Source: Chloroflexota bacterium (GTDB lineage: Bacteria > Chloroflexota > UBA11872). Taken from it: a DNA stretch of 64,000 nucleotides. Below the pieces are notes generated by a model. That model made no database searches. It saw nothing but the letters and a program-made list of their open reading frames with translations, and was not told the origin of the DNA. The stretch lies in assembly GCA_028874175.1 (NCBI GenBank), contig JAPPLN010000117.1:3938-67937 (forward strand), read 5' to 3'. This document shows, piece by piece, positions 46,517 to 62,906 of the stretch (position 1 is its first letter; each line of letters opens with the position of its first letter). The position numbers and the translations under genes are program-made.

Positions 46517-47959
46517 TTAGGCGTCGTAGTAGAGCATGAACTCGTACGGGTGCGGCCGCAGGTTGACCTCGTCGGCCTCGCGGGTGCGCTTGTATTCCAG
46601 CCAGGTGTCGATGACGTCCTGGGTGAACACGTCGCCAACCAGCAGGAACTCGTGGTCGGCTTCCAGCGCGTCCAGCACCTCGTAGAGCGAGCCCGGAACC
46701 GACTGGATCTTGGCCGCTTCCTCGGGTTCCAACTCGTACAGGTCCATGTCGGCCGGCGGGGGCGGCTCGATCTTGTTGCGGATACCGTCCAGCCCGGCCA
46801 TCAGCAGAGCGGCGAACGCCAGATAGGGGTTCGCCGTCGGGTCGGGCGGGCGGAACTCCACGCGCCGCGCCGCCGGACTGCTGGAGTACGTCGGAATGCG
46901 AATGCAGGCGCTGCGGTTTCGCATGGAGTAGACCAGGTTGACCGGCGCCTCGAACCCGGGCACCAGGCGCCGGTACGAGTTGGTGGTTGGCGCCGCGAAT
47001 GCCAGCAACGACGGCGCGTGCCGCAGCAGGCCGCCGATGTAGTGACGTGCCGTCTCGCTCAACATGGCGTAGCCGGTTTCGTCGTAGAACAGCGGCGTGC
47101 CGTCCTTCCAGAGACTCTGGTGGACATGCATGCCCGACCCGTTGTCGCCGAAGATCGGCTTGGGCATGAAGGTGACCGTGTAGCCAGCCTTCTGCGCCAC
47201 GTTCTTGACGATGTACTTGTACAGCATGATCCCGTCGGCGGACTTGACCAGCGGCGCGTACACCAGGTCGATCTCGGCTTGACCGGCGGTGGCGACCTCG
47301 TGGTGGTGAACCTCGACGTCAAGGCCAACCTCGCCTAGCGCCAGCACCATCTGCGTGCGCAGATCCTGCAGCTTGTCGTTTGGCGGGACCGGGAAGTAGC
47401 CCATCTTGTGGCGTGGACGGTGGCCCAAGTTGGCCACGTGCATGTCGTCGGCACCGGTGTTCCAGACGCCTTCCTCACTGTCGATGAAGAAGTAGCCGGC
47501 GTTGGCCGTCTGGTCATAGCGGATGCTGTTGAAGATGAAGAACTCGGCCTCCGGACCCCAATAGCTGGTGTCGGCGATGCCGCTGTCGATCAGGTGCTGC
47601 TCGGCCTTCTTGGCGATGTTGCGCGGGTCGCGCGTGTACGACTCGCCGGTGATCGGGTCGCGGATGTCGCAGGACATCACCAGGGTCGGCACTTCCGGAA
47701 TCGGGTCCACGAATGCGGTGGCCGGATCCGGCACCACCAACATGTCGCTTTCCTGGATCTGCTGGAAGCCGCGGACGCTGGAACCGTCGAAGCCGAGGCC
47801 GTCGTCGAAGAGATCTTCTTCGAGCTTGTCGATCGGCAACGAGAAATGCTGCCAGGTGCCCGGCAGGTCCGTGAACCGGAGGTCGAAAATCCGGCAGTCG
47901 GCGTCGCGCGCCTTGCGCATGACGCTCTGGATGAGATCGTCTCGAGAGGGCTCAGACAT
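46517..47959 (-). CDS. glnA: Glutamine synthetase type I
   Basis: N-terminus [19 protein letters not shown], the GSI ATP-binding and catalytic regions, and a GAGGAG RBS. Confidence 0.95.
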
Positions 47960-48227: not shown

Positions 48228-48719
48228 GTGAGTTTTTGGGACCGCTGGGCTCGCGAAAGCCGCCTGGCCCTGGCCATTGGCCTGCTGGGGACGCTGGCGG
48301 TGCCAGTGGTGGGCATCGTGATCCTGCGCTTCCTGCTGTCCGGACCCGAGGTGGAGGCGACGGCCAGCCAGCGGCCGGCGCCGCCGCGCCCGGCCGCCGA
48401 AGTCGGCGTGACAGATCCCGGCCCCGTGCCCACCGTGTTGGCGCCGGCTCCACCGCAAACACCGGCGCCCGACGTCCCCGCGGCAACCCCCACCCTGGCA
48501 CCGACTCCCACGCCCACGCCGTCGCGAACCGGCGAGGTGAACGCCACCGACGGCCTGAACGTGCGGACCGAACCCAGCACCCAGGGCCGCGTGCTGCGCA
48601 TCCTGCCCTTCCAGACCCAGGTGGATCTCACCGGCCGCTCCCGCCAATCCGAAGGTCTGACCTGGGTGGAACTGGAGGCCGGCGGGTGGGTGCAGGAGCG
48701 GTACCTGGACCGGCGCTGA
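48228..48719 (+). CDS. Membrane-anchored bacterial SH3 (SH3b) domain protein with a Pro/Thr/Ala linker
   Basis: GTG start, one TM helix, the linker APAPPQTPAPDVPAATPTLAPTPTPTPS, then an SH3_3-like domain GEVNATDGLNVRTEPSTQGRVLRILPFQTQVDL…WVELEAGGWVQERYL. Confidence 0.6.
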   Translation: MSFWDRWARESRLALAIGLLGTLAVPVVGIVILRFLLSGPEVEATASQRPAPPRPAAEVGVTDPGPVPTVLAPAPPQTPAPDVPAATPTLAPTPTPTPSRTGEVNATDGLNVRTEPSTQGRVLRILPFQTQVDLTGRSRQSEGLTWVELEAGGWVQERYLDRR

Positions 48720-49141: not shown

Positions 49142-49927
49142 CTAGCAGCCGAAGCCGAGGGTGAAGATGCAGAGCATGCCCTCGATGAACTTGTCGATGT
49201 TGGCGAGGGCGTTCAAGCCGAGTTCGGCCAGGGTGAACAGCGCTTCCGCGGTGAGCGCCCCGGCCTCGAGCAGGTCGAGCAGGTCGGCGTTGCCGGATTT
49301 CTGGACGAGCTCCGCGATCCCGGGGCCGTTAGGGTCGGCGCCGGCCGCCAGGAGCAGCCGCACGACCTCGGTGTTGCCGCGATCGACGGCGATGGCCAGG
49401 ACCGACAGGTCTTGCTCCGCCAGCGTGTTCGGGTCAGCGCCCGCGTCCAGCAGCAGCCGCACGATCTCGGCATCGCCCTCAATCGCGGCTGGCACCAGGA
49501 CCGGGATGCCGGATTCGCCCCTGGCGTTCGGGTCGGCGCCGGCGTCCAGCAGCATCGCCAGAATCGGGACATCGCCAGCGCTGGCAGCGAGCGACGCGGC
49601 AGGCTCGCCGTCCACGGTGCGGGCATCGGGATCGGCACCGGCATCCAGCAGCAGCGGGACGATTTCCAGATCGCCATGCTCCACGGCCACCGGCAGGGCC
49701 GAGCGGCCCTCGTCGTCCCGGTAATTGGGATCCGCCCCGGCCCACAGCGAAAGCTCCACCAGCGTGGTCCGGCGCTCAGCCACGTGATCCAGCAGCAGCG
49801 TCTCGTGACCAAGGACAAACCGGCCCAGGAAAAACAGGAGCACCGGCCCGACCAGCACCAGGGCCACACCGGCAGACAGCACCAACCGAACTCGGGACGT
49901 CACGGCTTCAGTCTCATCGACGCGCAC
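49142..49927 (-). CDS. Signal-anchored ankyrin-repeat protein (five ANK repeats)
   Basis: The N-terminus TSRVRLVLSAGVALVLVGPVLLFFLGRFVL is a TM anchor. ANK repeats follow: G-DPN-RD, ALPVAVEHGDLEIVPLLLDAGADPDA, …. Confidence 0.75.
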   Translation of the reverse strand: MRVDETEAVTSRVRLVLSAGVALVLVGPVLLFFLGRFVLGHETLLLDHVAERRTTLVELSLWAGADPNYRDDEGRSALPVAVEHGDLEIVPLLLDAGADPDARTVDGEPAASLAASAGDVPILAMLLDAGADPNARGESGIPVLVPAAIEGDAEIVRLLLDAGADPNTLAEQDLSVLAIAVDRGNTEVVRLLLAAGADPNGPGIAELVQKSGNADLLDLLEAGALTAEALFTLAELGLNALANIDKFIEGMLCIFTLGFGC

Positions 49928-50041
49928 GAAGTCAGCCCAGCGTCATTTCGAGTCCTTGCCCGACGCGAATCGCCACAGTGCCCGACAGTGGTTCGTCTTC
50001 CAATGAGAACCACTGTCGTCATCAGAGCACAAGCTGGATGA

Positions 50042-51049
50042 TCAATTCCACGCATTGCGAACCAGACTCTTGTGAAGCCGCTCGGCACACTCTTCCCAAG
50101 TGAACCTGAGGGCATACTTCCGGCAGTCACTTCGCTTCAGCGACAGCGCCCCAAGCGCCGCCTTCTTGAGATCGGTGTGTAGAACACCGACTTTGCTACT
50201 CGCTATGACATCTCTTGGACCCATCACGGGATACGCTGCCACGGGGATTCCGCTGGCAAGAGCTTCAATCATCACAATACCGAATGTATCGGTCTTGCTT
50301 GGGAAGACAAACACATCACTGTCCGCGTAGCACCGTGCCAAGCTTTCGCCGTGCTGCTCCCCCACGAAGCAGGCTTCCGGGTATCTTCGGCGTAGTGTCT
50401 CAAAGGCCGGACCACTGCCGACAACAACCTTGGTGCCGTCCAGACTCATGCCGAGGAAGGCGTCCAGATTTTTTTCTACAGCTACCCTGCCAACAAAGAG
50501 CCATATCGGGCGCCGAAGCCCGACAAAGAACAATTCTTCCCGAGGCCTAAATAGCCTGGTATCGACGCCTCTTGACCACGAACGGATATTCTTGAACTTT
50601 CGCTGTCGTAATTCCTTACGCAACGACTCCGTAGAAACGAGTACGGCCGAAGAAGGCGAGTGAAACCAGCGCAGCCACGCATATGTCCACAGCTCCGGAA
50701 TTCCGACACGAAGACGAAAGTAGCCAGGAAAATTCGTAGTGAAACTCGACGTGAAGTGAAGACCTCGACTTGCACAGTAGCAGCGAGCGGCTATCCCGAG
50801 GGGACCCTCAGTCACAACAAAGATATAGTTAGGTCGCAGTTCATTTATCATTCCGCCGAGTTTGGGCCAGACATTGATAGCCAGACGTATATCCGGCGAT
50901 CCGGGATGCGGAATCGTATAGAAGCGGTCGGGCGTAATCATCGTTACTTGATATCCAAACTCGTCAAGATATTCACGAATGCTAGCCAGTGTCCTCACCA
51001 CGCCGTTTATCTGGGGCTTCCATGTGTCGGTTACGATAAGGAGTCTCAT
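50042..51049 (-). CDS. GT4-family glycosyltransferase, probably a lipid (diacylglycerol-type) glycosyltransferase
   Basis: MRLLIVTDTWKPQINGVVRTL is a GT4 N-terminus like SqdX/MGS-type enzymes, and the C-terminal E…E region matches too. Low-GC gene. The start is chosen at 51049; alternatives are 51073 and 51136. Confidence 0.8.
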   Translation of the reverse strand: MRLLIVTDTWKPQINGVVRTLASIREYLDEFGYQVTMITPDRFYTIPHPGSPDIRLAINVWPKLGGMINELRPNYIFVVTEGPLGIAARCYCASRGLHFTSSFTTNFPGYFRLRVGIPELWTYAWLRWFHSPSSAVLVSTESLRKELRQRKFKNIRSWSRGVDTRLFRPREELFFVGLRRPIWLFVGRVAVEKNLDAFLGMSLDGTKVVVGSGPAFETLRRRYPEACFVGEQHGESLARCYADSDVFVFPSKTDTFGIVMIEALASGIPVAAYPVMGPRDVIASSKVGVLHTDLKKAALGALSLKRSDCRKYALRFTWEECAERLHKSLVRNAWN

Positions 51050-51222
51050 CGACGACGCAGCCGAATCAATCATGGTTGCGCGTAGACCTGTGTGCCATGG
51101 GCAAACCACCCAACGCCAAGGCCGGTGCAGGGCCAAGCTGAGGACCCAGGCGTGCCAGGAAATTGTCGATCCTCATCCGTTTCAGCTCTATGACACCTAG
51201 TCCGTTTTCTATGCCACAACCA

Positions 51223-52632
51223 TTATCGTGGTTCCAGAAACACTGGCATACCCCCCTTTGGACGGAGGCTAAACAGAAGCTCAAAGTCGATTCGATGATT
51301 GAGACTGTGCTGCACTCTCCAGTTCTGTCCAATCGTAGCCATGATCAGCTTCATCTCCATCCAGGCAAACCTCTCTCCGATACAGCGACGATGACCGCCA
51401 CCGAACGGAATGTAAGCAAACCGATGCAATGACCGTCGAGAATCCGGCGCCCAGCGCTCAGGAATAAATTTCGTCGGATTATCGAACCAACGCAGGTCGT
51501 GGTGAATGATGTACGGCGAGATACAGAGCAACGTTCCTGGCAGGACTTCATAGCCAGCCAGCTCAAAATTTTCCAAAGCAACACGCCCCATTCGCCAGAC
51601 TGGAGGGTACAGACGCATCGACTCCCTGATAACCTGTTCCGTATAGACTAGATTTGGGAGATCAGCCAATGTCGGGATTTCTCCCCCCAACACAGCATCC
51701 AGCTCCCTGTGAAATCGTGACTGAACTTCTGGATGTGTCCCGAGCAGGTACCAAGTCCAGGACAGTGCCGTCGTAACTGTCTCGTGACCCACCGCAAATA
51801 TGGTAATGATCTCATCCACAATCTGACGATCCGAAATGCCGCCGTTTACTGAGCCAGGGTGTTGCTGTGCCCCTGGATCGAGTAGCAGCGACAGCAAATC
51901 CTGACTTCCGTCAACAGTCCCACGCCGTTGCTCCATCATTCGACACGACAGACGATCGAGGTACGTCTTCTCGCGTCGAAACCTGCTCGATGCAGGTAAT
52001 GGTAGATAGTGCCAAAGATCACGAACTCGCTCATATAAGTGAAATCGCTTGTTCAGGTATCTATTTGCATAGTTCACTGCAGCCCCGATGCGTCTCACTT
52101 CATCGTCAGAAAAGTCCTGTCCGAACAGACAGCGCGTCACGATACTCAGCGTTATCTGCCGCATCTCGTCATCTATATCGATCCTCGTTCGCGCACTCCA
52201 TTTGTCAACGCACTTCAAGGTACACTTGATCATAGCTTCACAGAAACCATCGATCTGCTTCCGATGGAAAGCCGGCTGCATCAGTCGACGCTGTCTCGAA
52301 TGCAGTTCACCATCGGACGTCAACAAGCCATCACCCATCAGGTACTTCATCGCCTCAACGTTGCGCCACCTACCAATACGCTCGTGGTTGTCGACTAACA
52401 CTTCGCTAACTAACTCCGGACTGGAAACTAGGTAAACCAACCATGGCTTGAAGGACATCGTAACTATGTCCCCATATCGCGCAGCCTCTTCCATCAGGCC
52501 GATCGGGTCACGAAGGTACCGAATAGTCTGTCCAACAATCGGTGCTTCGGGCGGGCCCGGTGGTAGACGACTAGGCTTGATCTTCGGGTTTGGTGGTAGG
52601 CACGAATTTGATGGCAGGCAAGAATCTGACAT
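51223..52632 (-). CDS. Cytochrome P450 with a eukaryote-like PPGP hinge
   Basis: SRLPPGPPEAPIVG hinge, the I-helix AVGHETVTTAL, EIRESMRLYPPV (ExxR) and the heme loop FGGGHRRCIGERFA. Confidence 0.9.
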   Translation of the reverse strand: MSDSCLPSNSCLPPNPKIKPSRLPPGPPEAPIVGQTIRYLRDPIGLMEEAARYGDIVTMSFKPWLVYLVSSPELVSEVLVDNHERIGRWRNVEAMKYLMGDGLLTSDGELHSRQRRLMQPAFHRKQIDGFCEAMIKCTLKCVDKWSARTRIDIDDEMRQITLSIVTRCLFGQDFSDDEVRRIGAAVNYANRYLNKRFHLYERVRDLWHYLPLPASSRFRREKTYLDRLSCRMMEQRRGTVDGSQDLLSLLLDPGAQQHPGSVNGGISDRQIVDEIITIFAVGHETVTTALSWTWYLLGTHPEVQSRFHRELDAVLGGEIPTLADLPNLVYTEQVIRESMRLYPPVWRMGRVALENFELAGYEVLPGTLLCISPYIIHHDLRWFDNPTKFIPERWAPDSRRSLHRFAYIPFGGGHRRCIGERFAWMEMKLIMATIGQNWRVQHSLNHRIDFELLFSLRPKGGMPVFLEPR

Positions 52633-52633
52633 G

Positions 52634-53287
52634 CTACTCTCTTCGCCCTGAAGATATTAAAGCTTGCCATAACGCCGAGCCCATCCGAAGTTTCCTTCTC
52701 TTCAAGCGCATATCTGTGAGAATCACTATAGCGAATAGGGACGAGAAATACGCCACGAGAACCCACGAGAGTCCAGAAAACAGCTTTGCAATAGCCAATG
52801 ACCATATGAACGAACATCCGAATCCGAGCCCAGTATTTTGCGTTCGCAGCATCACCAACGCCGCAGGAAATGCTGTAATCAGCATTTGGCCGGGAATGAC
52901 GGCAGCTAAGACACCCAGGGCGGTCGCAGCACCCCGGCCACCACGGAACCCAAGCCATACTGGCCATATGTGGCCAGCCATGGCGGCGATCCCTCCAATC
53001 ATTCCCAGTGTCGAGACAGGCTGCTCGAACTCACCAGAATTGACCATCAAGCTCATCAAATTGGATACGAAGACGGCTGCGAATCCTTTAGTCATATCCA
53101 GTACACCAACAAATAGGCCCCAACGGATTCCCAGCAAGCGTCCAGCGTTCGTGGCTCCCATGTTGCCGTCCCCAAGGGATCGGATGTCTGAGTCCTTGCC
53201 GAGAACTCGGCATGCAACGAGCCAAGCTGTTGGCAGGCTACCTATAAGATACCCGACCAACGATGCTGCAACGGGGGCCCAGATCAT
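52634..53287 (-). CDS. plsY: Glycerol-3-phosphate acyltransferase PlsY paralog
   Basis: GDGNMGATNAGR and HIWPVWLGFRGGRGAATALGVL motifs. Low GC. It is 1 nt from the P450 start. Confidence 0.8.
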   Translation of the reverse strand: MIWAPVAASLVGYLIGSLPTAWLVACRVLGKDSDIRSLGDGNMGATNAGRLLGIRWGLFVGVLDMTKGFAAVFVSNLMSLMVNSGEFEQPVSTLGMIGGIAAMAGHIWPVWLGFRGGRGAATALGVLAAVIPGQMLITAFPAALVMLRTQNTGLGFGCSFIWSLAIAKLFSGLSWVLVAYFSSLFAIVILTDMRLKRRKLRMGSALWQALISSGRRE

Positions 53288-53535
53288 TCTTTACTAGCTA
53301 CCGTCTGGAAAATTGTCCACGTCTAGTGCCATGCCTCTATCGGCCTATCACGCGGGTCGATTTGTCCAGAGCGAAAGTTTGGCGCTTGGTCCGTGTTCCC
53401 TGTTCCGATCTACAGCGAGGGGTCTCGAGCGAACGCCTTAACAACATTAACTTCCAATCCAACAAGCCAGAGACTTCAAGACCGTTAGCCTTGAGCCAGG
53501 ATGACGGAAATGTTCCGAGTGCCGGCCTAGCATCA

Positions 53536-53610
53536 TTCGAAGCGTCAAGACGAATACGCCGCGCACGTCCTCGCGGTAGTCGTTCTGACGTCCGGCGCAG
53601 CGGTTCGATC
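53536..53610 (-). pseudogene. Degenerate third copy of the ankyrin-flanking module (…QNDYREDVRGVF)
   Basis: gaatacgccgcgcacgtcctcgcggtagtcgttctgacg matches 56349..56388 and 57049..57088 of the ankyrin gene. No intact ORF remains. Confidence 0.35.
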
Positions 53611-53830
53611 CGGGAGTGGCGCGGCGTGCGCAACCTCTCTTCTGTCTCCGGGTCGCGCAGCAGAAGCCGCTTGATACCTCTTCATTCTTAACTCGTCCTA
53701 AGCGCCATCATCTGTTCCACCATCTCCACACACTCGGGGCAATCGGATCCTGACCGGCCCGGGTGTCCACTCTGCTCGTGGACCTGGGTCACTACTTCAT
53801 CGAAGGCTTCCCTAGCAGCCCTGGATAATT

Positions 53831-54184
53831 TCATTCTTCATCAGGCGACCGACCGTACCGATTGGATCCGTCGTCGCTCGGGAGCATCATGAACACCAGG
53901 AAAACTATCCAGCCGACCAATGGAACCAAGATTATAAGAAACCACCAGCCACTCTTGCCTGAATCATGGAGACGCCGGACTGAAACCGTCAACCCAGGAA
54001 GAAATAGCAATACCGCCAATCCCCAATAAGCTATCCCGAATACCGTGTGGACATCCGCAAGTATCGAGAGCGTTATGAGGACGATGACATAGGCGAGATA
54101 AAACCACCAGAATTCCGAGCGTCTGGCGCGACCTTCAAAGTCCGCGTAGTGTTCGAAAATTACGCTATTACACGCATTCCACAC
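53831..54184 (-). CDS. DUF805-family membrane protein
   Basis: RRSEFWWFYL and RRLHDSGKSGWW motifs. Confidence 0.7.
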   Translation of the reverse strand: MWNACNSVIFEHYADFEGRARRSEFWWFYLAYVIVLITLSILADVHTVFGIAYWGLAVLLFLPGLTVSVRRLHDSGKSGWWFLIILVPLVGWIVFLVFMMLPSDDGSNRYGRSPDEE

Positions 54185-54249
54185 TGGGAACCTCCGTCCT
54201 TTGCGCTATGCCTCTTCCGCTGCACCAGTACCGCGGGAAACTCATTGAC

Positions 54250-56013
54250 CTATATCCTCGACCATCTGAAGGGTGACGCGATCAGCGTCATCGTCAACGC
54301 TGTAAGCGCCAAGCCGGGGAATATGACGATCCACGGCGCAGCTCGAATTTGTTGCATCGGCACAGCCATCATGCCGCCCCACGATGGTGTAGGAGGCTCG
54401 ATTCCCAGGCCGAGGAAGCTCAGCGTTGCTGCCATGAGGATGGACAGCCCGAAGTGAAGCGTCACCAGCGCAATGATGGGATTAATGGCATCGGACAGGC
54501 TGAAACCGCCGCTGGCCTTGAGGACTGCCACCTCGTCGCGGGTGGCCCGGGCGATTCTTGGCCATAGGACGAGGGTCACCGCAATTGGAAGGCCCGTTAG
54601 GCCCGGATCAAACGCCGCCGTCACCAGCATTGCAAAAAGCAGCAGGGGAAAGGCCGGTATGTTGTCCAACGCTCCCGTGATAATCGCGTCGACCTTGCCG
54701 CCGGCATAGCCGGAAAGCAGGCCCACCCCGCCGCCTACCACAGCGACGGGGATCAGGGAGAGGAGCGCCACTGCCAGGATGGACCTCGCGCCGTGAATCA
54801 ACCGGCTCAGGACGTCGCGTCCGAGAGCGTCGGTTCCCAGCAGATGCCCAGCTCCGGGGGAGGACGATGCGTCCTCGATTGACACTCGGACTGGATCTTG
54901 CGTCGCAATGATTGGTGCGAAGACGGCCACGACAAGCAGGATTCCAATTGCTATCAAAGGAACCCTAGGCACCTTCCGTGCGCTGGACATGGATGGAACG
55001 GGTGGGATGTTCGTCCTCGTGCTGACCGGCTGCCCGCTGGATGGTCGGGCCGCAGCCCCAGGTTCCAGCCGGCGAACGAGCAAGGCCGTGACCAGGCTGA
55101 AGCCCAGGACTATCACCGCCATTCCCGCTGCCGCCATGGCCACCGCCTGGAGCACGGGGTAGTCACGCGCCTGAGCGGCGAAGACAGCCAGCGAGCCGAT
55201 GCCAGGTGCAGTGAACATCACGGTCTCGACCACGATCGCGCCAGCCAGGAAGACCCCAAACAGGATCGGTGTCCAGATGAGGACGTTGCCGAGGCAGCGC
55301 ACCAGGCACGCCCTTACCGGAAGTCGACTACCGCGCGAAGGCTCGATGTCCTGGCTGTCCAGAACTTCCACGATGCTGGAGCGTACGACTCGGACCATGA
55401 CTGCTCCGGCAAGAATCGCCAGGACCAGCGAGGGCAAGACAAGCTGGTTCATCGGGCCGTCCCGCGACCCCATCGGCAGGACGAGCATCAGCATCAGGGC
55501 GAGCCAGAAGCTCGGAACTCCCACGCCAAACACGGCCGCACCCCCCACGACACGGTCAATCAAACTGCCGCGGCGGGTGGCGGCCAAGACCCCCAGAGGC
55601 ATGGAGACAGCCGCCGCGAAGAGCATCGTTAGTGGCAGCAACGACAGGGTAGAAGGCAAACCCTCAAATACCAGGTCGCGGACCGCTGTGCCGCTCTCGA
55701 ACGAGTGGCCAAAGTCCCCCCTGGACATATCGCCTATCCAAGTCAGGTATCGGCTAATGGGGGAGGGGGATTCAAGACCCAGAGACTCACGAAGGAGAGC
55801 CGACTCCTCGCTGAGAAAGGAGTCTTCCGGAAGAATAACCGTGAGAACAAATACTGCCACCGAGAGGATGAACAACAGTACGACGCCCGTGACGAGGCGG
55901 GAAACGATATAGGTCCTGAAGTCCCCGGTAGAAAGAGGCATTCTGGAACCCCCAACGTCCGCGGCATGCGATGCAACTTGAGGATTGCGGGATGAAGCGT
56001 CTGTGTGAGTCAT
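54250..56013 (-). CDS. Fused peptide/nickel-type ABC permease (DppB-like and DppC-like halves in one polypeptide), orphan
   Basis: The first half has a DppB-type core. The second half has HLLGTDALGRDVLSRLIHGARSIL and a DppC-type EAA region. No SBP or ATPase gene is nearby. Confidence 0.8.
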   Translation of the reverse strand: MTHTDASSRNPQVASHAADVGGSRMPLSTGDFRTYIVSRLVTGVVLLFILSVAVFVLTVILPEDSFLSEESALLRESLGLESPSPISRYLTWIGDMSRGDFGHSFESGTAVRDLVFEGLPSTLSLLPLTMLFAAAVSMPLGVLAATRRGSLIDRVVGGAAVFGVGVPSFWLALMLMLVLPMGSRDGPMNQLVLPSLVLAILAGAVMVRVVRSSIVEVLDSQDIEPSRGSRLPVRACLVRCLGNVLIWTPILFGVFLAGAIVVETVMFTAPGIGSLAVFAAQARDYPVLQAVAMAAAGMAVIVLGFSLVTALLVRRLEPGAAARPSSGQPVSTRTNIPPVPSMSSARKVPRVPLIAIGILLVVAVFAPIIATQDPVRVSIEDASSSPGAGHLLGTDALGRDVLSRLIHGARSILAVALLSLIPVAVVGGGVGLLSGYAGGKVDAIITGALDNIPAFPLLLFAMLVTAAFDPGLTGLPIAVTLVLWPRIARATRDEVAVLKASGGFSLSDAINPIIALVTLHFGLSILMAATLSFLGLGIEPPTPSWGGMMAVPMQQIRAAPWIVIFPGLALTALTMTLIASPFRWSRI

Positions 56014-56045
56014 CGTCGACCCTCGCTACGAGTCAAGAGTGTTTC

Positions 56046-56160
56046 TTAGCCCCAATCAAGAGCATGGGCCCAGCCGGCACCAGGGCCACACGGGCGAACA
56101 GGACGAACCGAACCCGAGCTGTCACGGAAATCGCGCCGCCAATGTCCGGTGGCTGAGGTT
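56046..56160 (-). pseudogene. Truncated copy of the recurring N-terminal signal-anchor module (…RVRFVLFARVALVPAGPMLLIGAKKHS*)
   Basis: DNA and protein similarity to 49790..49927 and 59900..60010. It ends at a stop 27 nt before the permease start. Confidence 0.4.
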
Positions 56161-56334
56161 CGCTGAGATTCGGGACCGCACCGGATGGTGTGGCGGAACT
56201 CTCTGAGTGGGTCCGGTCCCGAACGAGGCACGACCATCGTTAAGATTCGATCGGCGACGTGCCCACCGTGGCCCGGACGGGAGTCGGGCCACGGCGGGTG
56301 TCAGAGCGCCGAGGTCGGGCACGAGGTCACATCG

Positions 56335-57282
56335 TCAGAAGGCCCAGGCAAAGACGCCGCGCACGTCCTCGCGGTGGTCGTTCTGGCAGGCGGCCTCCGC
56401 CTGGTCGCCGAAGACCTTTTGGTAGATGCCGACGTTGTTGTCGTTGCCCAGGTGGTTTTCCACGATGTCGTTCAGGTCGACACAGGTCGTGGGCCAGCCG
56501 AGTTCGGGCTCAACGGCCGACGCCGCCAGCAGGATTTGCACGATCTCCGTGTGCCCGCGCCACTGCGCTTCGCCCAGGGGGGTCTCGCCATCCGAGTCGC
56601 GCGCATTCACGTCGACCCCGGCATCGACAAGGATCTGCACCATCTCGGTGTGCCCGCGCCAGACCGCCTGAAAAAAGATTGGATCCCCATCGGCGTCCCT
56701 GGCATTCACATCGGCCCCGGCGTCCACCAGGATGCGTGCGACGTCCGTGTAGTCCCGCCAGATCGCCGAACGCAGCACCGGGTGGCCATCGGAATCCAGG
56801 GCGTTCACGTTGGCGCCGGCGTCGGCCAGGATGCGCACGATTTCCACGTGGTTGCGCCATATGGCCGAATGAATGAGCGGGTCGTTGTCTTCGTCGCGCG
56901 TGTTGGCGTTGAGTCCGCCGGCCACGAGCGTGCGCACCTGCGCGGTCCGGCCCCGCCACACGGCTCCGTACAGGGCGTCGTTAGCCAGGGGCAAGGACGA
57001 CCCCGCGACGGCCGGTTGTGCGGCGGGTGACGCGAGCCCGAAGGCCCAGGCGAACACGCCACGCACGTCCTCGCGGTGGTCGCCCTGGCAGGCGGCCTCG
57101 GCCTGGTCGCCGAAGACGCGCTGGTAGATGCCGACGTTGTTGGTACGGCCCAGATGCTGTTCCACGATGTCGTTGAGGTCGACGCAGGTGGTGGGCCACT
57201 GCGCGAAGACGGGCGTGGCAACAGCCGCGGCCACAGCGACGGCCACGACGGCCGCAATGAGAATTGTTCGTATCCGTCGCAT
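56335..57282 (-). CDS. Secreted ankyrin-repeat protein flanked at N- and C-terminus by a duplicated 48-aa two-Cys module (WPTTCVDLNDIVExHLG…DHREDVRGVFAWAF)
   Basis: Signal peptide MRRIRTILIAAVVAVAVAAAVATPVFAQ. The module is at aa 29-76 and again as the last 48 aa. Four or five ANK repeats lie between (IWRNHVEIVRILADAGANVNALD…). Confidence 0.75.
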   Translation of the reverse strand: MRRIRTILIAAVVAVAVAAAVATPVFAQWPTTCVDLNDIVEQHLGRTNNVGIYQRVFGDQAEAACQGDHREDVRGVFAWAFGLASPAAQPAVAGSSLPLANDALYGAVWRGRTAQVRTLVAGGLNANTRDEDNDPLIHSAIWRNHVEIVRILADAGANVNALDSDGHPVLRSAIWRDYTDVARILVDAGADVNARDADGDPIFFQAVWRGHTEMVQILVDAGVDVNARDSDGETPLGEAQWRGHTEIVQILLAASAVEPELGWPTTCVDLNDIVENHLGNDNNVGIYQKVFGDQAEAACQNDHREDVRGVFAWAF

Positions 57283-57344
57283 ATGAAGCCACCCTTCTTC
57301 ACATTCGCAGAGGTTCATTCGACCCTTCCGATATTGAATTTTCT

Positions 57345-57437
57345 TCACGTTAAGCCAGGACTGTCAAAGGAGGAGGCGCAGGAGGCGGCGGCCACCGCCA
57401 CCACTGCTGCCATGAGGATTGTTCGTATCCGTCGCAT
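57345..57437 (-). pseudogene. 30-aa mini-ORF duplicating the ankyrin signal peptide (MRRIRTILMAAVVAVAAAS…); a paralog remnant or uORF
   Basis: atgcgacggatacgaacaatcctcatggcagcagtggtggcggtggcc against the real start atgcgacggatacgaacaattctcattgcggccgtcgtggccgtcgct. The differences are largely synonymous. Confidence 0.3.
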
Positions 57438-57619
57438 TCAGTCGCCCTTCGTCGGTCGCACACGGTGCAGAGGTGTGATTGTACCTCTTGAGTGATACTT
57501 TTGCACCAGTGTCGTTGCCTCGAGTCAGCGGACGACAGTCGCAGCCCGGCGAGCGTTCGAACTAGGAAGGCCGCGGGTTCAATCAAGCGCGGATAGTGTC
57601 GACGCGTCAGGCGGTAGAC

Positions 57620-58282
57620 CTAGTCGTTGTCCAGCAATCCGTTCCGCACGGCCCAGACAACCATCTCCTGGCTCGACCCGGCCCCCAGCTTGTCGCGGAT
57701 GCCATAGATGGCATTGCGGATAGTCAGCGGACGATTCCCTCGAGCCTCGCCGATCTCCGCATACGACATCCCTTCGGCAAACAGCTTGAGGATCTCCTGT
57801 TCGCGCACGGTGAGCCGTGACAGCTCGCTACCAGCGTCCTCGCCAGAACTGTCGCGAACACCGGCAAAGGCTCGCCGCACCACGTCGCCGGGCACGCGAA
57901 ACTCCCCGTCGACAACGTCACGAATCGTGGCAAGCAGTTCGTCCTTGCCGGTGAACTTTTGCAGATAGCCCGTGGCGCCCGCGGCAATCGCGTCGATTAC
58001 GGTGTGATCGTTGGTCGACGCCGTCAACATGAGCACGCGGGTTCCAGGCACGGCCTCCATGATTTCGCGGCAGGCATCAACACCGTTCTTTACCGGCATA
58101 ATGACGTCCATGATGATGACGTCGGGCTTGACCCGCCGCGCCACATCCACGGCCTCGCAGCCGTCCCGGGCCTGGCCCGCGACCTGAAAGTCCTCGGACC
58201 GCTCCAGCATTTCTCGCAGGCCGTCCCTCATGATGGAGTGATCGTCCACGATCATGACCCTGGCTGGCGGACTTGCAGTCAC
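57620..58282 (-). CDS. NarL/FixJ-family response regulator (REC plus LuxR-type HTH)
   Basis: MIVDDHSIMRDGL…DVIIMDVIMP receiver, and a C-terminal LTVREQEILKLFAEGMSYAEIGEARGNRPLTIRNAIYGIRDKLG. The GTG start at 58282 has an AAGGATGG RBS; the ATG at 58255 is an alternative. Confidence 0.85.
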   Translation of the reverse strand: MTASPPARVMIVDDHSIMRDGLREMLERSEDFQVAGQARDGCEAVDVARRVKPDVIIMDVIMPVKNGVDACREIMEAVPGTRVLMLTASTNDHTVIDAIAAGATGYLQKFTGKDELLATIRDVVDGEFRVPGDVVRRAFAGVRDSSGEDAGSELSRLTVREQEILKLFAEGMSYAEIGEARGNRPLTIRNAIYGIRDKLGAGSSQEMVVWAVRNGLLDND

Positions 58283-58295
58283 GTTGGCACCATCC

Positions 58296-59555
58296 TTAAG
58301 TTGGATCAATTTCGATTTCACAGGTAACGGTTGTGCCCCTTCCAGGACGGCCTGAGGTGACGTGGAGCCGACCGTTCATTTGTTCGGCGTTGGCGTGCAT
58401 GTATTTGAATCCGTGCCCGCGCTCGGCGTAATCGTCGGGAAGACCGATGCCGTCGTCCGACACTGACATGCGCAGACTCTTGTCCTGATAGTCCAGGGCG
58501 ACCGAGACCTTGCTGGCGCGGGCGTGCCGCAAAGCGTTCGTCAGCGCATTGTGCGCGATCGAAAAGAGCCGACTGCGGGTCACCGAAGGGAGCGGCCGTT
58601 CCCTGCCGGTCTGGACGACCGACGCGGGAATCGAGGTGATGGTCTCAAAGGATGCGGCGTGCAGTTCCAGCACGCGGCCCAACGACCGGCCTTCGAATAT
58701 GAGCCCCGCGTCGATCGGGTGCCGAAGCTCCCACATCGCCGCCTTGGAGAGCGCCGATGTCGCTTCGAGCTTGGACACCATCTCGCGCCGTGACTGCTCG
58801 GTCATCTCGAGCGCCGTGTCGATTCCAATCCCAATCATGAATACGGACTGGGCCGTGGTGTCATGAATCGTCTGCGAGAGCTCGATTCGCTCCCGATGCA
58901 GCTCGCGCTCGCGTTTCACCGCCCCTTCTCTACGGATTCTCTCGGCCCGGGACAGGAGGCTCACGGACGCCGCCACGGCATACATTACGATGGTTCTGCC
59001 AAACAGTTCTTTCTCTTCCTTCGCCTCGAGGTCGAGACCCGAAGCAACGGCCAAACATACGATTACGTAAGCGACGACTACTACTGTGGTCCACACCATA
59101 CTCAATCTGAACGAGCCGAAGAAGACCGCAAACCAGGCTAGCGAAGGGTAATACAGCAGATAGAAGAGATTGTTATTCAAACCGCCGCCAATTGCCGTGC
59201 CAGCGGTTATGATGATCACGTCCAGCACGCTAAGCGCAAGCATCCAGCGTATCGTCACTGAAGGACCGGCAACTACGCGATAGTGGACGATGCCGTTTAC
59301 TATTATAAGCAGCACGAGGAAGCTTATGTAGGAAGTATATGTAAACGCGGTAAATGTTGGCCGATATGCCAAGTCAATAATGCTGGCCCCGTGAATGAAC
59401 CAGCGAACCCAGACAAAGATCTTGGCCGGGTACCTCAGCTCTTCCGGATCGGTTGTGTACGGGTGCCAGTTTCTAATTGCACCAGCCTCAACCACAGCGG
59501 ATAGGAGCCGCTGCGCTCGCCTCCTGAAAGCTACATCGTTGCCTGCCGACATCAC
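58296..59555 (-). CDS. Sensor histidine kinase (HisKA_3/NarL-partner type) with a polytopic N-terminal sensor
   Basis: Five or six TM helices, the H-box region LHRERIELSQTIHDTTAQSVF, and an HATPase_c region (ALTNALRHARAS…DDGIGLP). Confidence 0.85.
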   Translation of the reverse strand: MMSAGNDVAFRRRAQRLLSAVVEAGAIRNWHPYTTDPEELRYPAKIFVWVRWFIHGASIIDLAYRPTFTAFTYTSYISFLVLLIIVNGIVHYRVVAGPSVTIRWMLALSVLDVIIITAGTAIGGGLNNNLFYLLYYPSLAWFAVFFGSFRLSMVWTTVVVVAYVIVCLAVASGLDLEAKEEKELFGRTIVMYAVAASVSLLSRAERIRREGAVKRERELHRERIELSQTIHDTTAQSVFMIGIGIDTALEMTEQSRREMVSKLEATSALSKAAMWELRHPIDAGLIFEGRSLGRVLELHAASFETITSIPASVVQTGRERPLPSVTRSRLFSIAHNALTNALRHARASKVSVALDYQDKSLRMSVSDDGIGLPDDYAERGHGFKYMHANAEQMNGRLHVTSGRPGRGTTVTCEIEIDPT

Positions 59556-59818
59556 GAAACCGACACGCTCTTCAGCCCGCCAAGACTTCCGAGGACATGG
59601 GCAAGCCTGGATGAGACCGGCCGACGGCGCACAGGCGATCCAGACGGGTGGTCGCTCGCGGCCACGGGCGTGGCGTTCCTAACGTCGGGGCCATGACGTA
59701 CATAGACCGATGCGTCGATTCGCCCGATGGATACGTAACCACTGTTACGTTAGCACCACCTGAGGAGGCAGAGCGCTCCCAGGGGGTAACGCTGTCTTGG
59801 CGAGGCGCCCGGTATTGC

Positions 59819-60076
59819 CTACGGCGTCGCGCGGACATGGCCCGTCGTCCGGCGTTGGGCCACGTGGTCCAGCAGCACCGCATCGCGGCTGAGAACCAGC
59901 CGTGCCAGGAAAAGCTCCAGCACGGGCCCTGTGAGCACGAAAGCCACCCCGGCGACCAGGACGAACCGAACTCGGGCAGTGTCAGCGCCGATCTCAGCGA
60001 TGCGCGTGAATTCGGGCCAGCAGTATCTCGGGACCGTACCGGTCGTTGAGACATTGCGGCGAGCCTGCAAGGTCAA
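59819..60076 (-). pseudogene. Truncated paralog of the ankyrin-protein N-terminal signal-anchor module (85-aa ORF, no ANK repeats)
   Basis: TARVRFVLVAGVAFVLTGPVLELFLARLVLSRDAVLLDHVAQRRTT against TSRVRLVLSAGVALVLVGPVLLFFLGRFVLGHETLLLDHVAERRTT from 49142..49927. Confidence 0.45.
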
Positions 60077-60156: not shown

Positions 60157-60444
60157 ATGGGCGTTGCCTTTGACTGGAGCACTGAGAAGAATCAACGGCT
60201 GGTCGACGAGCGAGGGGTTTCGTTTGAACGCGTCGTCTCGGCCATTGAGCAGGGCGGCCTGGTCGACGTGGTGGAGCACCCCAATCAGGATCGCTACCCA
60301 GGGCAGTTGATCTACGTGGTGGAAGTCAGCGAGTACATTCATCTCGTACCGTTCGTCACGCAGACCGACGGCACTCGCTTCCTGAAGACAATCATTCCCA
60401 GCCGCAAAGCGACGCGCGACTATAGGAGGAGGCGATCAACGTGA
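60157..60444 (+). CDS. brnT: BrnT-family (DUF497) type II toxin
   Basis: FDWSTEKNQRLVDERGVSFERV…YIHLVPFV…KTIIPSRKAT matches the BrnT pattern (FEWDxxKN…HGVxF…IISARKA). Confidence 0.75.
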   Translation: MGVAFDWSTEKNQRLVDERGVSFERVVSAIEQGGLVDVVEHPNQDRYPGQLIYVVEVSEYIHLVPFVTQTDGTRFLKTIIPSRKATRDYRRRRST

Positions 60445-60716
60445 GCGACACGCTGAGCGTGGAAGAGCGCGACATTCTTGAGCGATTCGAACGAGGCAAG
60501 CTTCGCTCTGTCCCCGGTGTCGAACACGAGATCGAGGCGGCCCGCGAAGCGGCTCGCCAAACGTTCAACAAGACCAGGCGCGTGAATCTGCGGGTCACGG
60601 AACGCGACTTCAGTCTCGCCCACTCGCGGGCCAGGGAAGAGGGCATCCCCTACCAGACTCTGCTGTCGAGCGTCATCCACAAGTACCTGGCCGGCCGGCT
60701 GACCGAGAAGCGGTAG
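60441..60716 (+). CDS. brnA: BrnA-family antitoxin
   Basis: KTRRVNLRVTERDFSLAHSRAREEGIPYQTLLSSVIHKYLAGRL. The GTG start overlaps the brnT stop (GTGA) and has an AGGAGGAGG RBS. Confidence 0.75.
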   Translation: MSDTLSVEERDILERFERGKLRSVPGVEHEIEAAREAARQTFNKTRRVNLRVTERDFSLAHSRAREEGIPYQTLLSSVIHKYLAGRLTEKR

Positions 60717-60775: not shown

Positions 60776-61264
60776 TTAGTCGAGGTTGCGGGAGAAGCGG
60801 TGGCTGTCGGGAGCGTAGCCGAGCTTCTGGTAGAGCCGCAGGGCGGGTTGGTTGAAGTCGTAGACGCTGAGCCCGATCTGGGTGAGGCCGCGGTCGCGGG
60901 CCCAGCGGTGGGCTTCGGCCATCAGGCGCGTGGCGATGCCGCGGCGTTGATGGTTTTGCGCGACGACGAGTTCCTGGACCATGGCGTAGCGGCGCGGCGT
61001 GAGGGCCGGAACGTCGGGTACCTCAAGGCGTTCCAGAGCCTGGACGCGCACCAGGCCCACGACGGCGCCATCCACTTCAGCCACGAAGAGCGCCTGATCG
61101 GGGTCGGCCAGGTGGGCATCGAACAACCGTTGCGAGCGGGCTGGCTTATCAGTGGGTCGAAAACGGTCAGGGCGCTCGCGTGCGTGGAGGGCATCGGCCT
61201 CGGCGTAGAGGCGGCAGGCGGCGTGGTGGTCGGTGGGTTTGGCGAGGCGGAGGCGGCAGTGCAT
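60776..61264 (-). CDS. GNAT-family N-acetyltransferase
   Basis: The start at 61264 gives MHCRLRLAKPTD… and the acetyl-CoA loop QNHQRRGIATRLM. Confidence 0.75.
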   Translation of the reverse strand: MHCRLRLAKPTDHHAACRLYAEADALHARERPDRFRPTDKPARSQRLFDAHLADPDQALFVAEVDGAVVGLVRVQALERLEVPDVPALTPRRYAMVQELVVAQNHQRRGIATRLMAEAHRWARDRGLTQIGLSVYDFNQPALRLYQKLGYAPDSHRFSRNLD

Positions 61265-61615
61265 GGGAGGTTCAGGATAGGAAGGCTTGTGCTTGGTCGA
61301 GATGCCTCCGGTCTCCGGCTTCGAAGACCCGGTGCCCTGGATCACGTCTGTAACAGGAATCGCCAGGGTCTCCACCGGGACGATCGGGAGGAGAGAAACG
61401 GCTCGCCGTTGGTGGTCAGGCGGACTATAAGCGTTGTAGTGGATAGTGGAGAGCGCTATCGGCACGCTTGCTTTGCGAGGGCGCTTTCAGTCTCTAGGGG
61501 GCCGAAACGCGCCCGATGCGCCCGGATTCATCCCTAGCTGCCTCAAACGTCTAGACGCTGCGGGGCTCGCAAGCGCGATAGAATCAAAGGGGTTGGCGCG
61601 AAGGGACCGGTGAGC

Positions 61616-61780: not shown

Positions 61781-62014
61781 GTGAGCCGTCGGGAAGTTCC
61801 CGCTAGGTGGGTTTTCATTGGCCTGTTCGCTCTCGTGATCATGGGCATAGGGGTAATGGCCTGGCTCGCTGACGTACCGGCTGACGTTTTCACCCCGGCG
61901 CAACGCAATCTGCTGACGGTTGCCGACTGGATGGTCAAGGCCTCCATAGGCGCCATCCTGGGTTTTGCGGGTGCTCGGGTGGGATCCGGCCCTACCTCTC
62001 CGGAGTCCCGTTAG
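61781..62014 (+). CDS. Possible 77-aa two-TM small membrane protein
   Basis: WVFIGLFALVIMGIGVMAWLA and MVKASIGAILGFAGA hydrophobic segments. Confidence 0.3.
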   Translation: MSRREVPARWVFIGLFALVIMGIGVMAWLADVPADVFTPAQRNLLTVADWMVKASIGAILGFAGARVGSGPTSPESR

Positions 62015-62087
62015 CCAAAGCCCACACAAGCTGTGATGCCGTCGCTCGCGAAGGCGCACGGAAGCAGGCGGGTCTGAGAGGCCGCGC

Positions 62088-62906
62088 CTATGAGGCGTGC
62101 GAGGCCGTGTCGGGCTGCTCCAGTTCCGAATCCAGGCGGTCGGTGACGAACATGTGGCCGGGGGCGTGGGTGATCATGAGGGTGGGGCGGCTGGCCTGGG
62201 CGACGGCCTGGGGGGTGACGCCGCAGCCCCAGAAGACGGGGACTTCGCCCGGCCGGATTTCTACCGGCTCGCCCCAGTCGGGCAGGTTGATGTCCTGGAT
62301 GCCGATGGTGAGGGGGTCGCCGGCGTGGACTGGGGCGCCGTGGACGCCGGGGTAGCGGGCAGTGATTTCGCAGACCTCGGGCACCCGGTCGGCCATGACG
62401 GGGCGCATGCTGACCACCATGGGGCCGGCGAACTCGCCGGCGGGGCGGCAGGCCAGGCTGGTCCGGTACATGGGGACGTTGACGTCCTGGGTCTGGTGGC
62501 GGAGTTCGAACCCGGCGCGGGCCATGGCGCCCTCGAAGGTGAAGCTGCAGCCGAGCAGGAAGCCGACCATGTCTGCCTGAACCTGGTCCAGCACGTCGGT
62601 GGGTTCGCCGGGGTCCTGCACGCCTTCGCGGTAGACGCGGTAGCGGGGAGCGTCGGTGCGCAGGTCGGCGCCGGGGGCAAATTGGGTCGGTTCGAAGTTG
62701 CCGGGCGGGGTGCGCTCGAGCAGGGGACAGGGGATGGGGTTGGACTGGCAGAAGGCCTGGAAGTCGTCGGCGTCGCCGGCCGGCAGCATGACGAGGTTGG
62801 CCTGGACGTAGCCATCGGCCATGCCGTGAGTGGGTCGGTCCCACTCGCCCGAGCGGCAAGCGGCGCGGACGTCGGCACCGCTGGCAAAGGTCCGGGACGA
62901 CCTCAT
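62088..62906 (-). CDS. DUF1445-family protein, the putative hydro-lyase/D-glutamate-cyclase C-terminal-type half
   Basis: GYVQANLVMLPAGDADDF…PMVVSMRP…HGAPVH matches DUF1445. Its start at 62906 overlaps the upstream stop by 4 nt (ATGA). Confidence 0.7.
   Translation of the reverse strand: MRSSRTFASGADVRAACRSGEWDRPTHGMADGYVQANLVMLPAGDADDFQAFCQSNPIPCPLLERTPPGNFEPTQFAPGADLRTDAPRYRVYREGVQDPGEPTDVLDQVQADMVGFLLGCSFTFEGAMARAGFELRHQTQDVNVPMYRTSLACRPAGEFAGPMVVSMRPVMADRVPEVCEITARYPGVHGAPVHAGDPLTIGIQDINLPDWGEPVEIRPGEVPVFWGCGVTPQAVAQASRPTLMITHAPGHMFVTDRLDSELEQPDTASHAS

Follow-up and report, generated by a model that had tools for sequence, protein, structure and literature searches.

The locus examined here raises the question of whether three related copies of a short coding module, lying in the same orientation within an accessory region, mark the boundaries of exchangeable gene cassettes or are the remains of genes. 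The locus lies in a 64,000-nucleotide stretch of Chloroflexota DNA (contig JAPPLN010000117.1, positions 3,938 to 67,937; hereafter the window), and the module encodes the N-terminus of a membrane-anchored ankyrin-repeat protein, the gene for which is termed ANKA. All three copies are on the minus strand: copy A (49763-49941) is the 5′ end of ANKA itself, copy B (56054-56127) lies directly upstream of a fused ABC permease gene, and copy C (59843-60021) lies upstream of a two-component system consisting of a histidine kinase (HK) and a response regulator (RR). An earlier sequence-only reading of the window had proposed that the copies delimit cassette-like blocks, either through repeated homologous recombination between paralogous 5′ ends followed by decay, or because the element acts as a recombination site. 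In order to distinguish between these possibilities, related loci (designated by L numbers) were recovered via their ANKA orthologues and the genes of the window were mapped onto them. The explanation that we consider highly probable from this comparison is the birth-and-death decay of a family of ankyrin paralogues, in which duplication would have been followed by illegitimate deletions and neutral decay.

The three copies are homologous at the level of both DNA and protein. When each copy was searched by blastn against the whole window, A and C aligned over 179 nt with 71.5% identity (49763-49941 versus 59843-60021, E=1e-21), A and B over 74 nt with 78% identity (E=2e-12), and B and C over 62 nt with 77% identity (E=9e-9), bearing out the earlier description of three minus-strand copies that share DNA similarity. 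A repeat search of 47-62 kb returned the same three places as one family, D4 (49832-49905, 56054-56127 at 78% and 59912-59985 at 69%), and no fourth module copy was found in the window by tblastn or blastn. The encoded peptides are 63% identical over 54 aa for A and C, for which about 65% had been claimed, and 67% identical over 24 aa for A and B. The core sequence CGAACCGAACYCGRG, quoted earlier as common to all three, is exact in B and C and has one mismatch in A; its three matches compare with 0.07 expected by chance, and at least three matches were obtained in 0 of 100 shuffles. As the match between A and C extends beyond the hydrophobic stretch, through the non-membrane sequence 'LLLDHVAxRRTT' and through approximately 38 nt 5′ of the start codon, the similarity is not mere low complexity of transmembrane (TM) sequence. 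Both stubs have closer relatives elsewhere in the family than copy A of the same window (19/22 aa versus 15/22 for B, and 37/46 versus 31/46 for C).

The resemblance could in principle be a chance similarity of hydrophobic TM segments, and the confinement of the B match to 74 TM-coding nucleotides would fit such a view; equally, the arrangement could be an error of metagenome assembly. Both possibilities are negligible in view of the significance of the DNA alignments in a 64-kb search space (1e-21 to 9e-9, which is not the result expected of hydrophobic sequence devoid of significant DNA identity), the excess of core matches over chance, and the fact that long-form orthologues of B run on into the ankyrin repeat. 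The arrangement of the locus, including copy C, is present in six independent assemblies with 99.5-100% identity, among them ENA ROBB21-1_SAMN13943215 scaffold_406, NCBI JAPPJH010000119.1 and one JGI contig, and this agreement rules out mis-assembly.

ANKA (49142..49903, minus strand) is an intact gene and shows what the module encodes. Its 253-aa product matches Pfam Ank, Ank_2 and Ank_4 (E ~1e-25) and has more than 50 orthologues with 65-99% identity, almost all of which are 253 aa long and start with 'MTARVRF...'; the length and N-terminus of these orthologues place the true start at the GTG at 49903, and not at 49927 as initially read. The dN/dS values of 0.13 versus L001 and 0.23 versus L004 indicate that ANKA is under purifying selection. 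An AF2 model of the protein (pLDDT 85.7) has a single long helix at residues 2-31, ankyrin-repeat (ANK) helix pairs from residues 34-54, and a long C-terminal helix that is less confident. Hydropathy reaches its maximum of 2.62 at residues 7-26 (Kyte-Doolittle, 19-aa window), and no second membrane-grade segment was found in ANKA by this measure. Copy A accordingly comprises approximately 38 nt of leader and codons 1-47, encoding the TM helix and the first ankyrin helix pair. The C-terminus (49142-49240) carries a near-invariant motif, '...FIEGMLCIFTLG[FL]GC', with two invariant cysteines, which the AF2 model places in the long low-confidence helix (206-247); this part of the protein may be a second membrane-associating or lipidated segment.

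A profile hidden Markov model of the module was run against 1.84 billion representative proteins. Profile positions 33-74 matched thousands of generic ankyrin proteins, and positions 1-32 gave matches only inside the small ANKA family, so that the module is a family-specific signal-anchor helix joined to a first ankyrin repeat and not a portable effector domain. Approximately eleven clusters match the module from its first positions, about half of which are short open reading frames (ORFs); the short-ORF clusters that were inspected are stubs or chimeras, including copy C of the window and a chimera of a stub with a GNAT acetyltransferase gene. The family is small, with true members in only four species in a scan of one genome per GTDB species, and its named relatives are all from Chloroflexi/Chloroflexota metagenome-assembled genomes (MAGs). 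The number of repeats varies within it, giving forms of 220, 253 and 285 aa. A scan of JGI metagenomes with the module alignment yielded one additional locus only (L090), and no relatives of the module were found in viral contigs, which leaves no link to the ankyrin-carrying phages of sponges. In L095 (2355-3626) and L096 (2232-3503) (P0003), and also in P0017, ANKA and the upstream DUF805 gene are called as a single ORF of 377-423 aa, which may reflect a read-through fusion or an artefact of gene calling.

Copy B is a pseudogene stub (56033..56127, minus strand) that retains 23 of the 253 codons of the family, and it does not have the frameshift reported earlier: the GTG start is kept, the 23 family codons are in frame, and a 7-codon unrelated tail completes a 30-codon ORF (56033-56125) with its stop 20 nt before the permease ATG. 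No ANK sequence was found 3′ of the stub. Stubs at the same position are found in related genomes at different stages of decay. In the window, L001 and L004, the distance from the start of B to the permease ATG is exactly 112 nt, and L006 has an equivalent 23-codon stub just before its permease; the stub of L094 covers codons 18-63, and the long forms reach from codon 1 to codon 63 in L005 and to codon 71 in L002/L003. The outgroup L007 has a full-length paralogue at the position of B, with no permease or DUF805 gene, which suggests what B once was. All forms of B share the junction before the permease, 'TCTTGACTCGTAGCGAGG...GACGATG', and the short form looks like the long form minus an internal deletion of roughly 190 nt.

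The substitution pattern of B is that of a sequence under relaxed selection. Any two of the three short orthologues differ by 8 nonsynonymous and 2 synonymous changes, which corresponds to a dN/dS of 1.5-1.8, and proline, aspartate and arginine have entered what was once the membrane helix. For ANKA, the permease gene and the DUF805 gene, the same pairs of genomes give dN/dS values of 0.13-0.51. The stub comparisons, including that of C with L097 described below, are small samples of 21-30 codons. Taken together, the conserved position, the graded decay and the unconstrained substitutions identify B as an old pseudogene relic. In L002, the stub (7248-7388) has 96.5% DNA identity to the full-length ANKA of the same locus (10001-10141) and only 82% to the stub of L005. 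That an old stub resembles the resident ANKA so closely is evidence of recent gene conversion and indicates that stubs can still be converted by the live gene.

Copy C is a second pseudogene stub (59819..60045, minus strand), in which approximately 60 nt of leader precede codons 1-47 and an unrelated tail of 8 codons; it lies 264 nt from the HK gene. In place of the GTG with which the family starts, C has GAC, its TM helix contains a Glu residue, and no ANK remnant was found downstream. All three features suggest that the gene is dead, and its earlier description as truncated and free of ANK repeats stands. A recent origin of C as a copy of A or B was rejected, since it is 72% identical to both, and its nearest sampled sequences (gene A of L008 and stub B of L094) are only 86.7% identical over 90 nt. 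In L097 and L098, where HK is 95-96.5% identical to that of the window, a BrnT-like toxin-antitoxin pair (BrnTA) occupies the same slot as in the window and is followed by a shorter orthologue of C, a cytochrome c gene and HK. In this orthologue 21 codons remain, with the GTG intact, and they continue in frame into the final ~23 codons of GNAT, across a junction with only about 4-5 shared bases (L097 3160-3283). In L093 (239-526), with the order ANK2 - module::GNAT chimera - HK (ANK2 being a second ankyrin family), module codon 55 is joined in frame to GNAT codon 189, leaving the last 41 codons of the latter. In the window, module codon 47 is joined to the HK upstream region, and no GNAT 3′ remnant was found after C. 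A full module-ankyrin gene lies directly after GNAT in L008 and L091. Between the window and L097, C has a pN/pS of 0.78 at 19% divergence, and the adjacent HK has diverged by 3.5-5%. The import of C and BrnTA as one fragment was also rejected, as L097-L099 have BrnTA in the same slot together with a different, shorter stub and cytochrome c; joint import is further disfavoured by the occurrence of BrnT as a multi-copy gene in unrelated contexts, such as L100.

The gene content between the copies was then compared across the related loci. Wherever a related locus extends to both flanks, GNAT is on one side of the island and an SH3-GlnA gene pair on the other. An ORF at 62011-63387 was also used as a synteny marker; it gave many low-complexity cross-matches, and only matches with at least 50% identity were retained. 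Read in coding-strand order, the window has GNAT - (BrnTA) - stub C - HK - RR - ANK2 - stub B - permease - DUF805 - (low-GC GT4/P450/PlsY) - ANKA - SH3 - GlnA. L004/L006 and L094 have GNAT - cytochrome c - HK - RR - ANK2 - stub B - permease - DUF805 - ANKA - SH3 - GlnA, and L002/L003 have GNAT - HK - RR - ANK2 - DUF4352 - stub B - permease - DUF805 - ANKA, to which L005 adds a divergent full paralogue before stub B. The order in L001 is GNAT′ - ANK2′ - 516-aa paralogue - ANK2 - stub B - permease - DUF805 - ANKA. In the outgroup L007 (GlnA 93% identical) it is GNAT - HK - RR - ANK2 - full paralogue - ANKA. L008 has GNAT - full module-ankyrin gene - ... - SH3, with no HK, RR or permease, and L091 has ...ANK2 - paralogue - ANKA - partial D-Glu cyclase - ... 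- GNAT - ANKA.

L001, L002, L004, L005, L006 and L094 all have the fused DppB/C-type permease (54250..56013, minus strand; two Pfam BPD_transp_1 domains) at the equivalent position, with 80-86% identity, and the DUF805 membrane protein (53831..54184, minus strand; Pfam E 5e-31) is encoded directly upstream of ANKA in the relatives. The genes for the HisKA_3 histidine kinase (58296-59555) and the LuxR-type response regulator (57620-58321), both assigned by Pfam and on the minus strand, are kept as a pair in L002, L004-L007, L094 and L098, and L091 shows RR and the 3′ end of HK at the edge of its locus. The conserved left flank, GNAT (60776..61465, minus strand; Pfam), is present in L002, L004-L008, L091 and L094, with a diverged partial copy (49% identity) in L001. 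On the right flank, both assigned by Pfam, GlnA (46517-47959, minus strand) and the SH3_3 membrane protein gene (48228-48719, plus strand) are 93-99% and 85-97% identical, respectively, where the loci extend that far. The BrnT-like toxin and its adjacent presumed antitoxin (60157..60716, plus strand) are supported by a Pfam BrnT match at E 1.4e-5, which is below the curated cutoff; the pair lies head-to-head with stub C in a variable slot between GNAT and HK that is likewise filled in L097-L099. The partner ORF has no Pfam match. The BrnT-like protein has 4758 homologues at E<1e-5, and among its 120 best clusters identity is 75-97%, with some clusters on 11-16 contigs, numbers that suggest a toxin-antitoxin family with many copies in these Chloroflexota. 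A comparison of L094 (10000-13400) with L005 (7280-10800) gave a mosaic, in which the 3′ part of the stub, the permease and DUF805 are ~93% identical and the 5′ end of ANKA is 68-75% identical; such a pattern points to break points of recombination in the vicinity of the module, or to rapid evolution there.

One segment of the window has no counterpart in the relatives. A low-GC insertion specific to this population (49928..53830, minus strand) contains genes that Pfam assigns to a GT4 glycosyltransferase (50042-51136), a cytochrome P450 (51223-52632) and a PlsY acyltransferase (52634-53287), and an ANK2-domain relic (53537-53596); its GC content is 0.52-0.55, versus ~0.67 elsewhere, and it is absent from all related loci. 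Homology to the relatives ends at the DUF805 stop codon at 53836 (for L005, at 53798) and is found again from the ANKA start (49903-49920), and these break points indicate a separate insertion that replaced the 150-250-nt spacer between DUF805 and ANKA. The block had been read as part of a single unit of about 6.1 kb, together with the permease, bracketed by module copies. Its ends show instead that it replaces only the DUF805-ANKA intergenic region, and by this evidence it is unrelated to, and not bounded by, the module copies. The block runs right up to the start codon of ANKA, which has thereby been deprived of its native upstream sequence.

These comparisons bear directly on the proposal that the module is a recombination site, at which blocks are swapped either site-specifically, as in an integron, or by homologous recombination. 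The window taken by itself invites this reading, with three co-oriented copies 6.2 and 3.9 kb apart in a region of heterogeneous composition, and the content of the island does vary among relatives, and L091 has its GNAT block after an ankyrin gene rather than before HK. However, the variation is not located where cassette exchange would place it. A comparison of related genomes had been put forward to see whether the content between the copies varies; between B and A it does not, since permease and DUF805 fill this block in each of the seven genome types with a stub B, namely the window, L001, L002/L003, L004/L006, L005, L094 and L095/L096. HK-RR-ANK2 occurs without copy C in five genome types. 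The segments that do vary have no flanking copies: they occupy the gap between ANK2 and stub B (DUF4352 in L002, the divergent paralogue in L005), the slot between GNAT and HK (cytochrome c or BrnTA), and the gap between DUF805 and ANKA (the lipid block). No recombinase, integrase or transposase was found among the sizeable ORFs of 46.5-61.5 kb, all of which were assigned elsewhere by Pfam, and none in the 47-62 kb region of the copies, and an Rfam scan of the whole window gave no known RNA element. At 72-78% identity within this genome, the copies are also a poor substrate for homologous recombination. Finally, the end points of the stubs are not fixed but differ in each lineage; the stub junctions differ between genomes and the one seen at base level shares ~4-5 nt, as expected of illegitimate deletion and not of site-specific exchange. 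Cassette exchange at the module is therefore very improbable, in either form. Of the sequence-only proposal of recombination between paralogous 5′ ends followed by decay, what survives is that two copies are decayed 5′ ends of one anchored ankyrin family and that conversion is seen in L002; the exchange of cassettes is unsupported.

Homology, orthologous position, graded decay, relaxed selection and constant blocks between the copies are shown by the comparisons; the order of events and the mechanism of deletion are what we infer under birth-and-death decay, as follows. The module is the 5′ end (leader, start codon, signal-anchor helix and first ankyrin repeat) of a lineage-specific Chloroflexota family that would have been repeatedly duplicated in the GNAT to SH3-GlnA island, the duplicates being partly deleted. 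Copy A is the surviving functional gene. B would be the stub of a tandem paralogue, the 3′ part of which was lost when, or after, the permease and DUF805 genes arrived, and would later have been shortened by an internal deletion. C would derive from a paralogue formerly located after GNAT and cut short by a deletion that reached the HK upstream region; in the simplest history, this paralogue was cut by independent deletions with different end points in each lineage. Both stubs would now drift without constraint at the protein level and mark old deletion junctions. Several points weigh against this history. It is drawn from approximately 12 metagenome-derived loci with no genome phylogeny, and 21-47 codons underlie the dN/dS values. 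The reading frame of C is open over 54 codons, and its divergence from all family members in the sample is 13% or more, which places the paralogue that gave rise to it outside the sample. In addition, no isolated 3′ fragments of the module family were found, only 5′ stubs, a pattern that could hint at selection keeping the 5′ end (by promoter retention, for example) instead of neutral decay.

This last pattern would also fit the suggestion that the stubs are kept as captured promoters and leaders, or as short upstream ORFs that tune permease-DUF805 in the case of B and HK-RR in the case of C. Every stub seen is co-oriented with, and directly 5′ of, an operon, B retains its GTG, and in three genomes its 30-codon frame stops 20 nt short of the permease ATG, and the L002 stub is nearly identical to the live gene. 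Against this, the B peptide evolves without constraint and has acquired charged residues and proline in its helix, and C has lost its start codon and lies 264 nt from HK. A consensus scan of 49-61 kb for promoters and terminators gave notable sites only upstream of ANK2 and BrnT, with no sigma-70-like promoter beside stub B or C. The divergence of stub B (~10-11%) and of the upstream intergenic DNA (8.6-10.5%), which equals or falls slightly below the synonymous divergence of the neighbouring genes (pS 0.13-0.24), is weak evidence in either direction. Moreover, any deletion in a co-directional array leaves a 5′ stub by geometry, and we regard a retained function as unlikely. A related idea, to which we would likewise give a small chance, is that the ankyrin 5′ end is a preferred end point of microhomology-mediated deletions, and that stubs persist because they donate an active, possibly host-responsive, promoter and leader. 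The stubs might also each have arisen in one step, by Campbell-type single-crossover integration of a circle carrying a module fragment and cargo. The layout of B - permease - DUF805 - A, in which a stub, a foreign block and the complete gene follow each other in direct orientation, is the one predicted, and in L097 a copy of the last ~70 nt of GNAT lies beyond the BrnTA and stub segment, on the far side from the complete GNAT, and resembles a duplication of the kind that integration creates. However, the tandem full paralogues of L007 and L091 make duplication followed by deletion sufficient, the stub::GNAT chimeras of L093 and L097 are products of simple deletions, each ending at a different place, and no circular element, second junction or match to a viral contig was seen. 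Freshly integrated DNA would be flanked by nearly identical repeats, but the events lie too far back for such a check: the B and A repeats are now 78% identical in the window and 96.5% in L002, the latter value being a better fit to gene conversion. Integration of this kind is quite unlikely.

Fragments of a second ankyrin family are found in the same island. ANK2 (56335..57282, minus strand; Pfam Ank, repeat D3) encodes a secreted protein that has a signal peptide and in which a Cys-containing end domain is duplicated, and has orthologues with 70-81% identity in all relatives. The domain of ~55 aa ('WPTTCVDLNDIVE...EDVRGVFAWAF') has no Pfam match and flanks the ankyrin repeats on both sides, at 56338-56496 and 57040-57198, with 87% DNA identity between the two copies. 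It also occurs as tandem pairs without ankyrin repeats in L007, L008 and L091. A 5′ stub of ANK2, a 30-codon duplicate of the signal peptide (57345..57437, minus strand; repeat D8, 81%), lies 155 nt upstream of the real ANK2 start and has orthologues in L004 (6156-6245) and L005 (4343-4432); a promoter-like sequence, TTGACA-18-GAAAAT, is located by this stub at 57367-57338. The relic of the end domain noted above ('...NDYREDVRGVF...', 53537-53596) lies in a gene-poor stretch between DUF805 and PlsY, and no ankyrin 3′ remnants were found after the stubs or in 53.3-53.8 kb. The island is thus strewn with pieces of the gene families that it contains, the ANK2 stub and the end-domain fragment among them.

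The window is identical to scaffold ROBB21-1_SAMN13943215, one of the relatives is the isolate CO36386bin_13, and these names fit the sponge study PMC8163846; these bacteria are thus probably sponge-associated, judging by the names of records and isolates only. Sponge symbionts, Chloroflexota included, are described as enriched in eukaryote-like repeat proteins such as those with ankyrin repeats, and these proteins have been proposed to modulate, by interference, phagocytosis by the host (PMC8163846 and PMC6306507, which cite Nguyen et al. 2014 and Reynolds & Thomas 2016). Most sponge MAGs are without classical secretion systems, according to the account given in PMC8163846. The proteins described here resemble sponge-symbiont ANK proteins in forming an expanded family with several paralogues per genome in Chloroflexota MAGs, and differ in that the ANKA family has a defined architecture (a signal-anchor helix, about five ANK repeats and a Cys-containing C-terminal helix) and is confined to one syntenic island. 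This architecture suggests to us that a Sec-type membrane anchor may be a simple alternative route by which ankyrin repeats reach the surface.

The birth and death of gene families, with pseudogene relics, is a textbook process, and the ANK genes of Wolbachia are variable and often truncated. The ANKA family shares with such families its tandem and dispersed paralogues, truncated copies, occasional conversion (L002) and strain-variable content; in contrast to them, no association with prophages or insertion sequences was seen in the window, the relics are all 5′ ends, and one stub position is kept across several species-level lineages. The likeness to integron arrays, namely co-oriented genes, a repeat between blocks and a toxin-antitoxin pair and acetyltransferase nearby, is superficial, as no integrase was found in 46.5-61.5 kb, the repeat is a coding 5′ end where an integron would have an attC hairpin, each block comprises several genes and is conserved, and the boundaries are not fixed. 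The silent cassettes of pilE/pilS and vlsE carry the variable region without the 5′ end. The locus is similar to these systems in having one expressed-type gene beside partial copies, with evidence of conversion in one relative, whereas the partial copies here consist of the conserved 5′ end only; with no variable part, the stubs cannot donate diversity.

For annotation, this means that two ORFs, one of 85 aa (59819-60076) and one of 30 codons (56033-56125), are to be treated as pseudogene fragments, and not as small membrane proteins or recombination sites, and the apparent cassettes as a conserved syntenic island with one separate low-GC insertion. What is specific here is the anchored family, its confinement to a single island and a stub position kept across lineages; the mechanism itself is known. 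If promoter capture were true, the island would have been repeatedly rewired, with permease-DUF805, HK-RR and cytochrome c-HK placed behind stubs, and would not simply be decaying. These results define a specific membrane-anchored ankyrin family in Chloroflexota, confined to one syntenic island, where it turns over fast through duplication, changes in repeat number, truncation and gene conversion, and such fast turnover fits host-interaction genes evolving under changing pressure.

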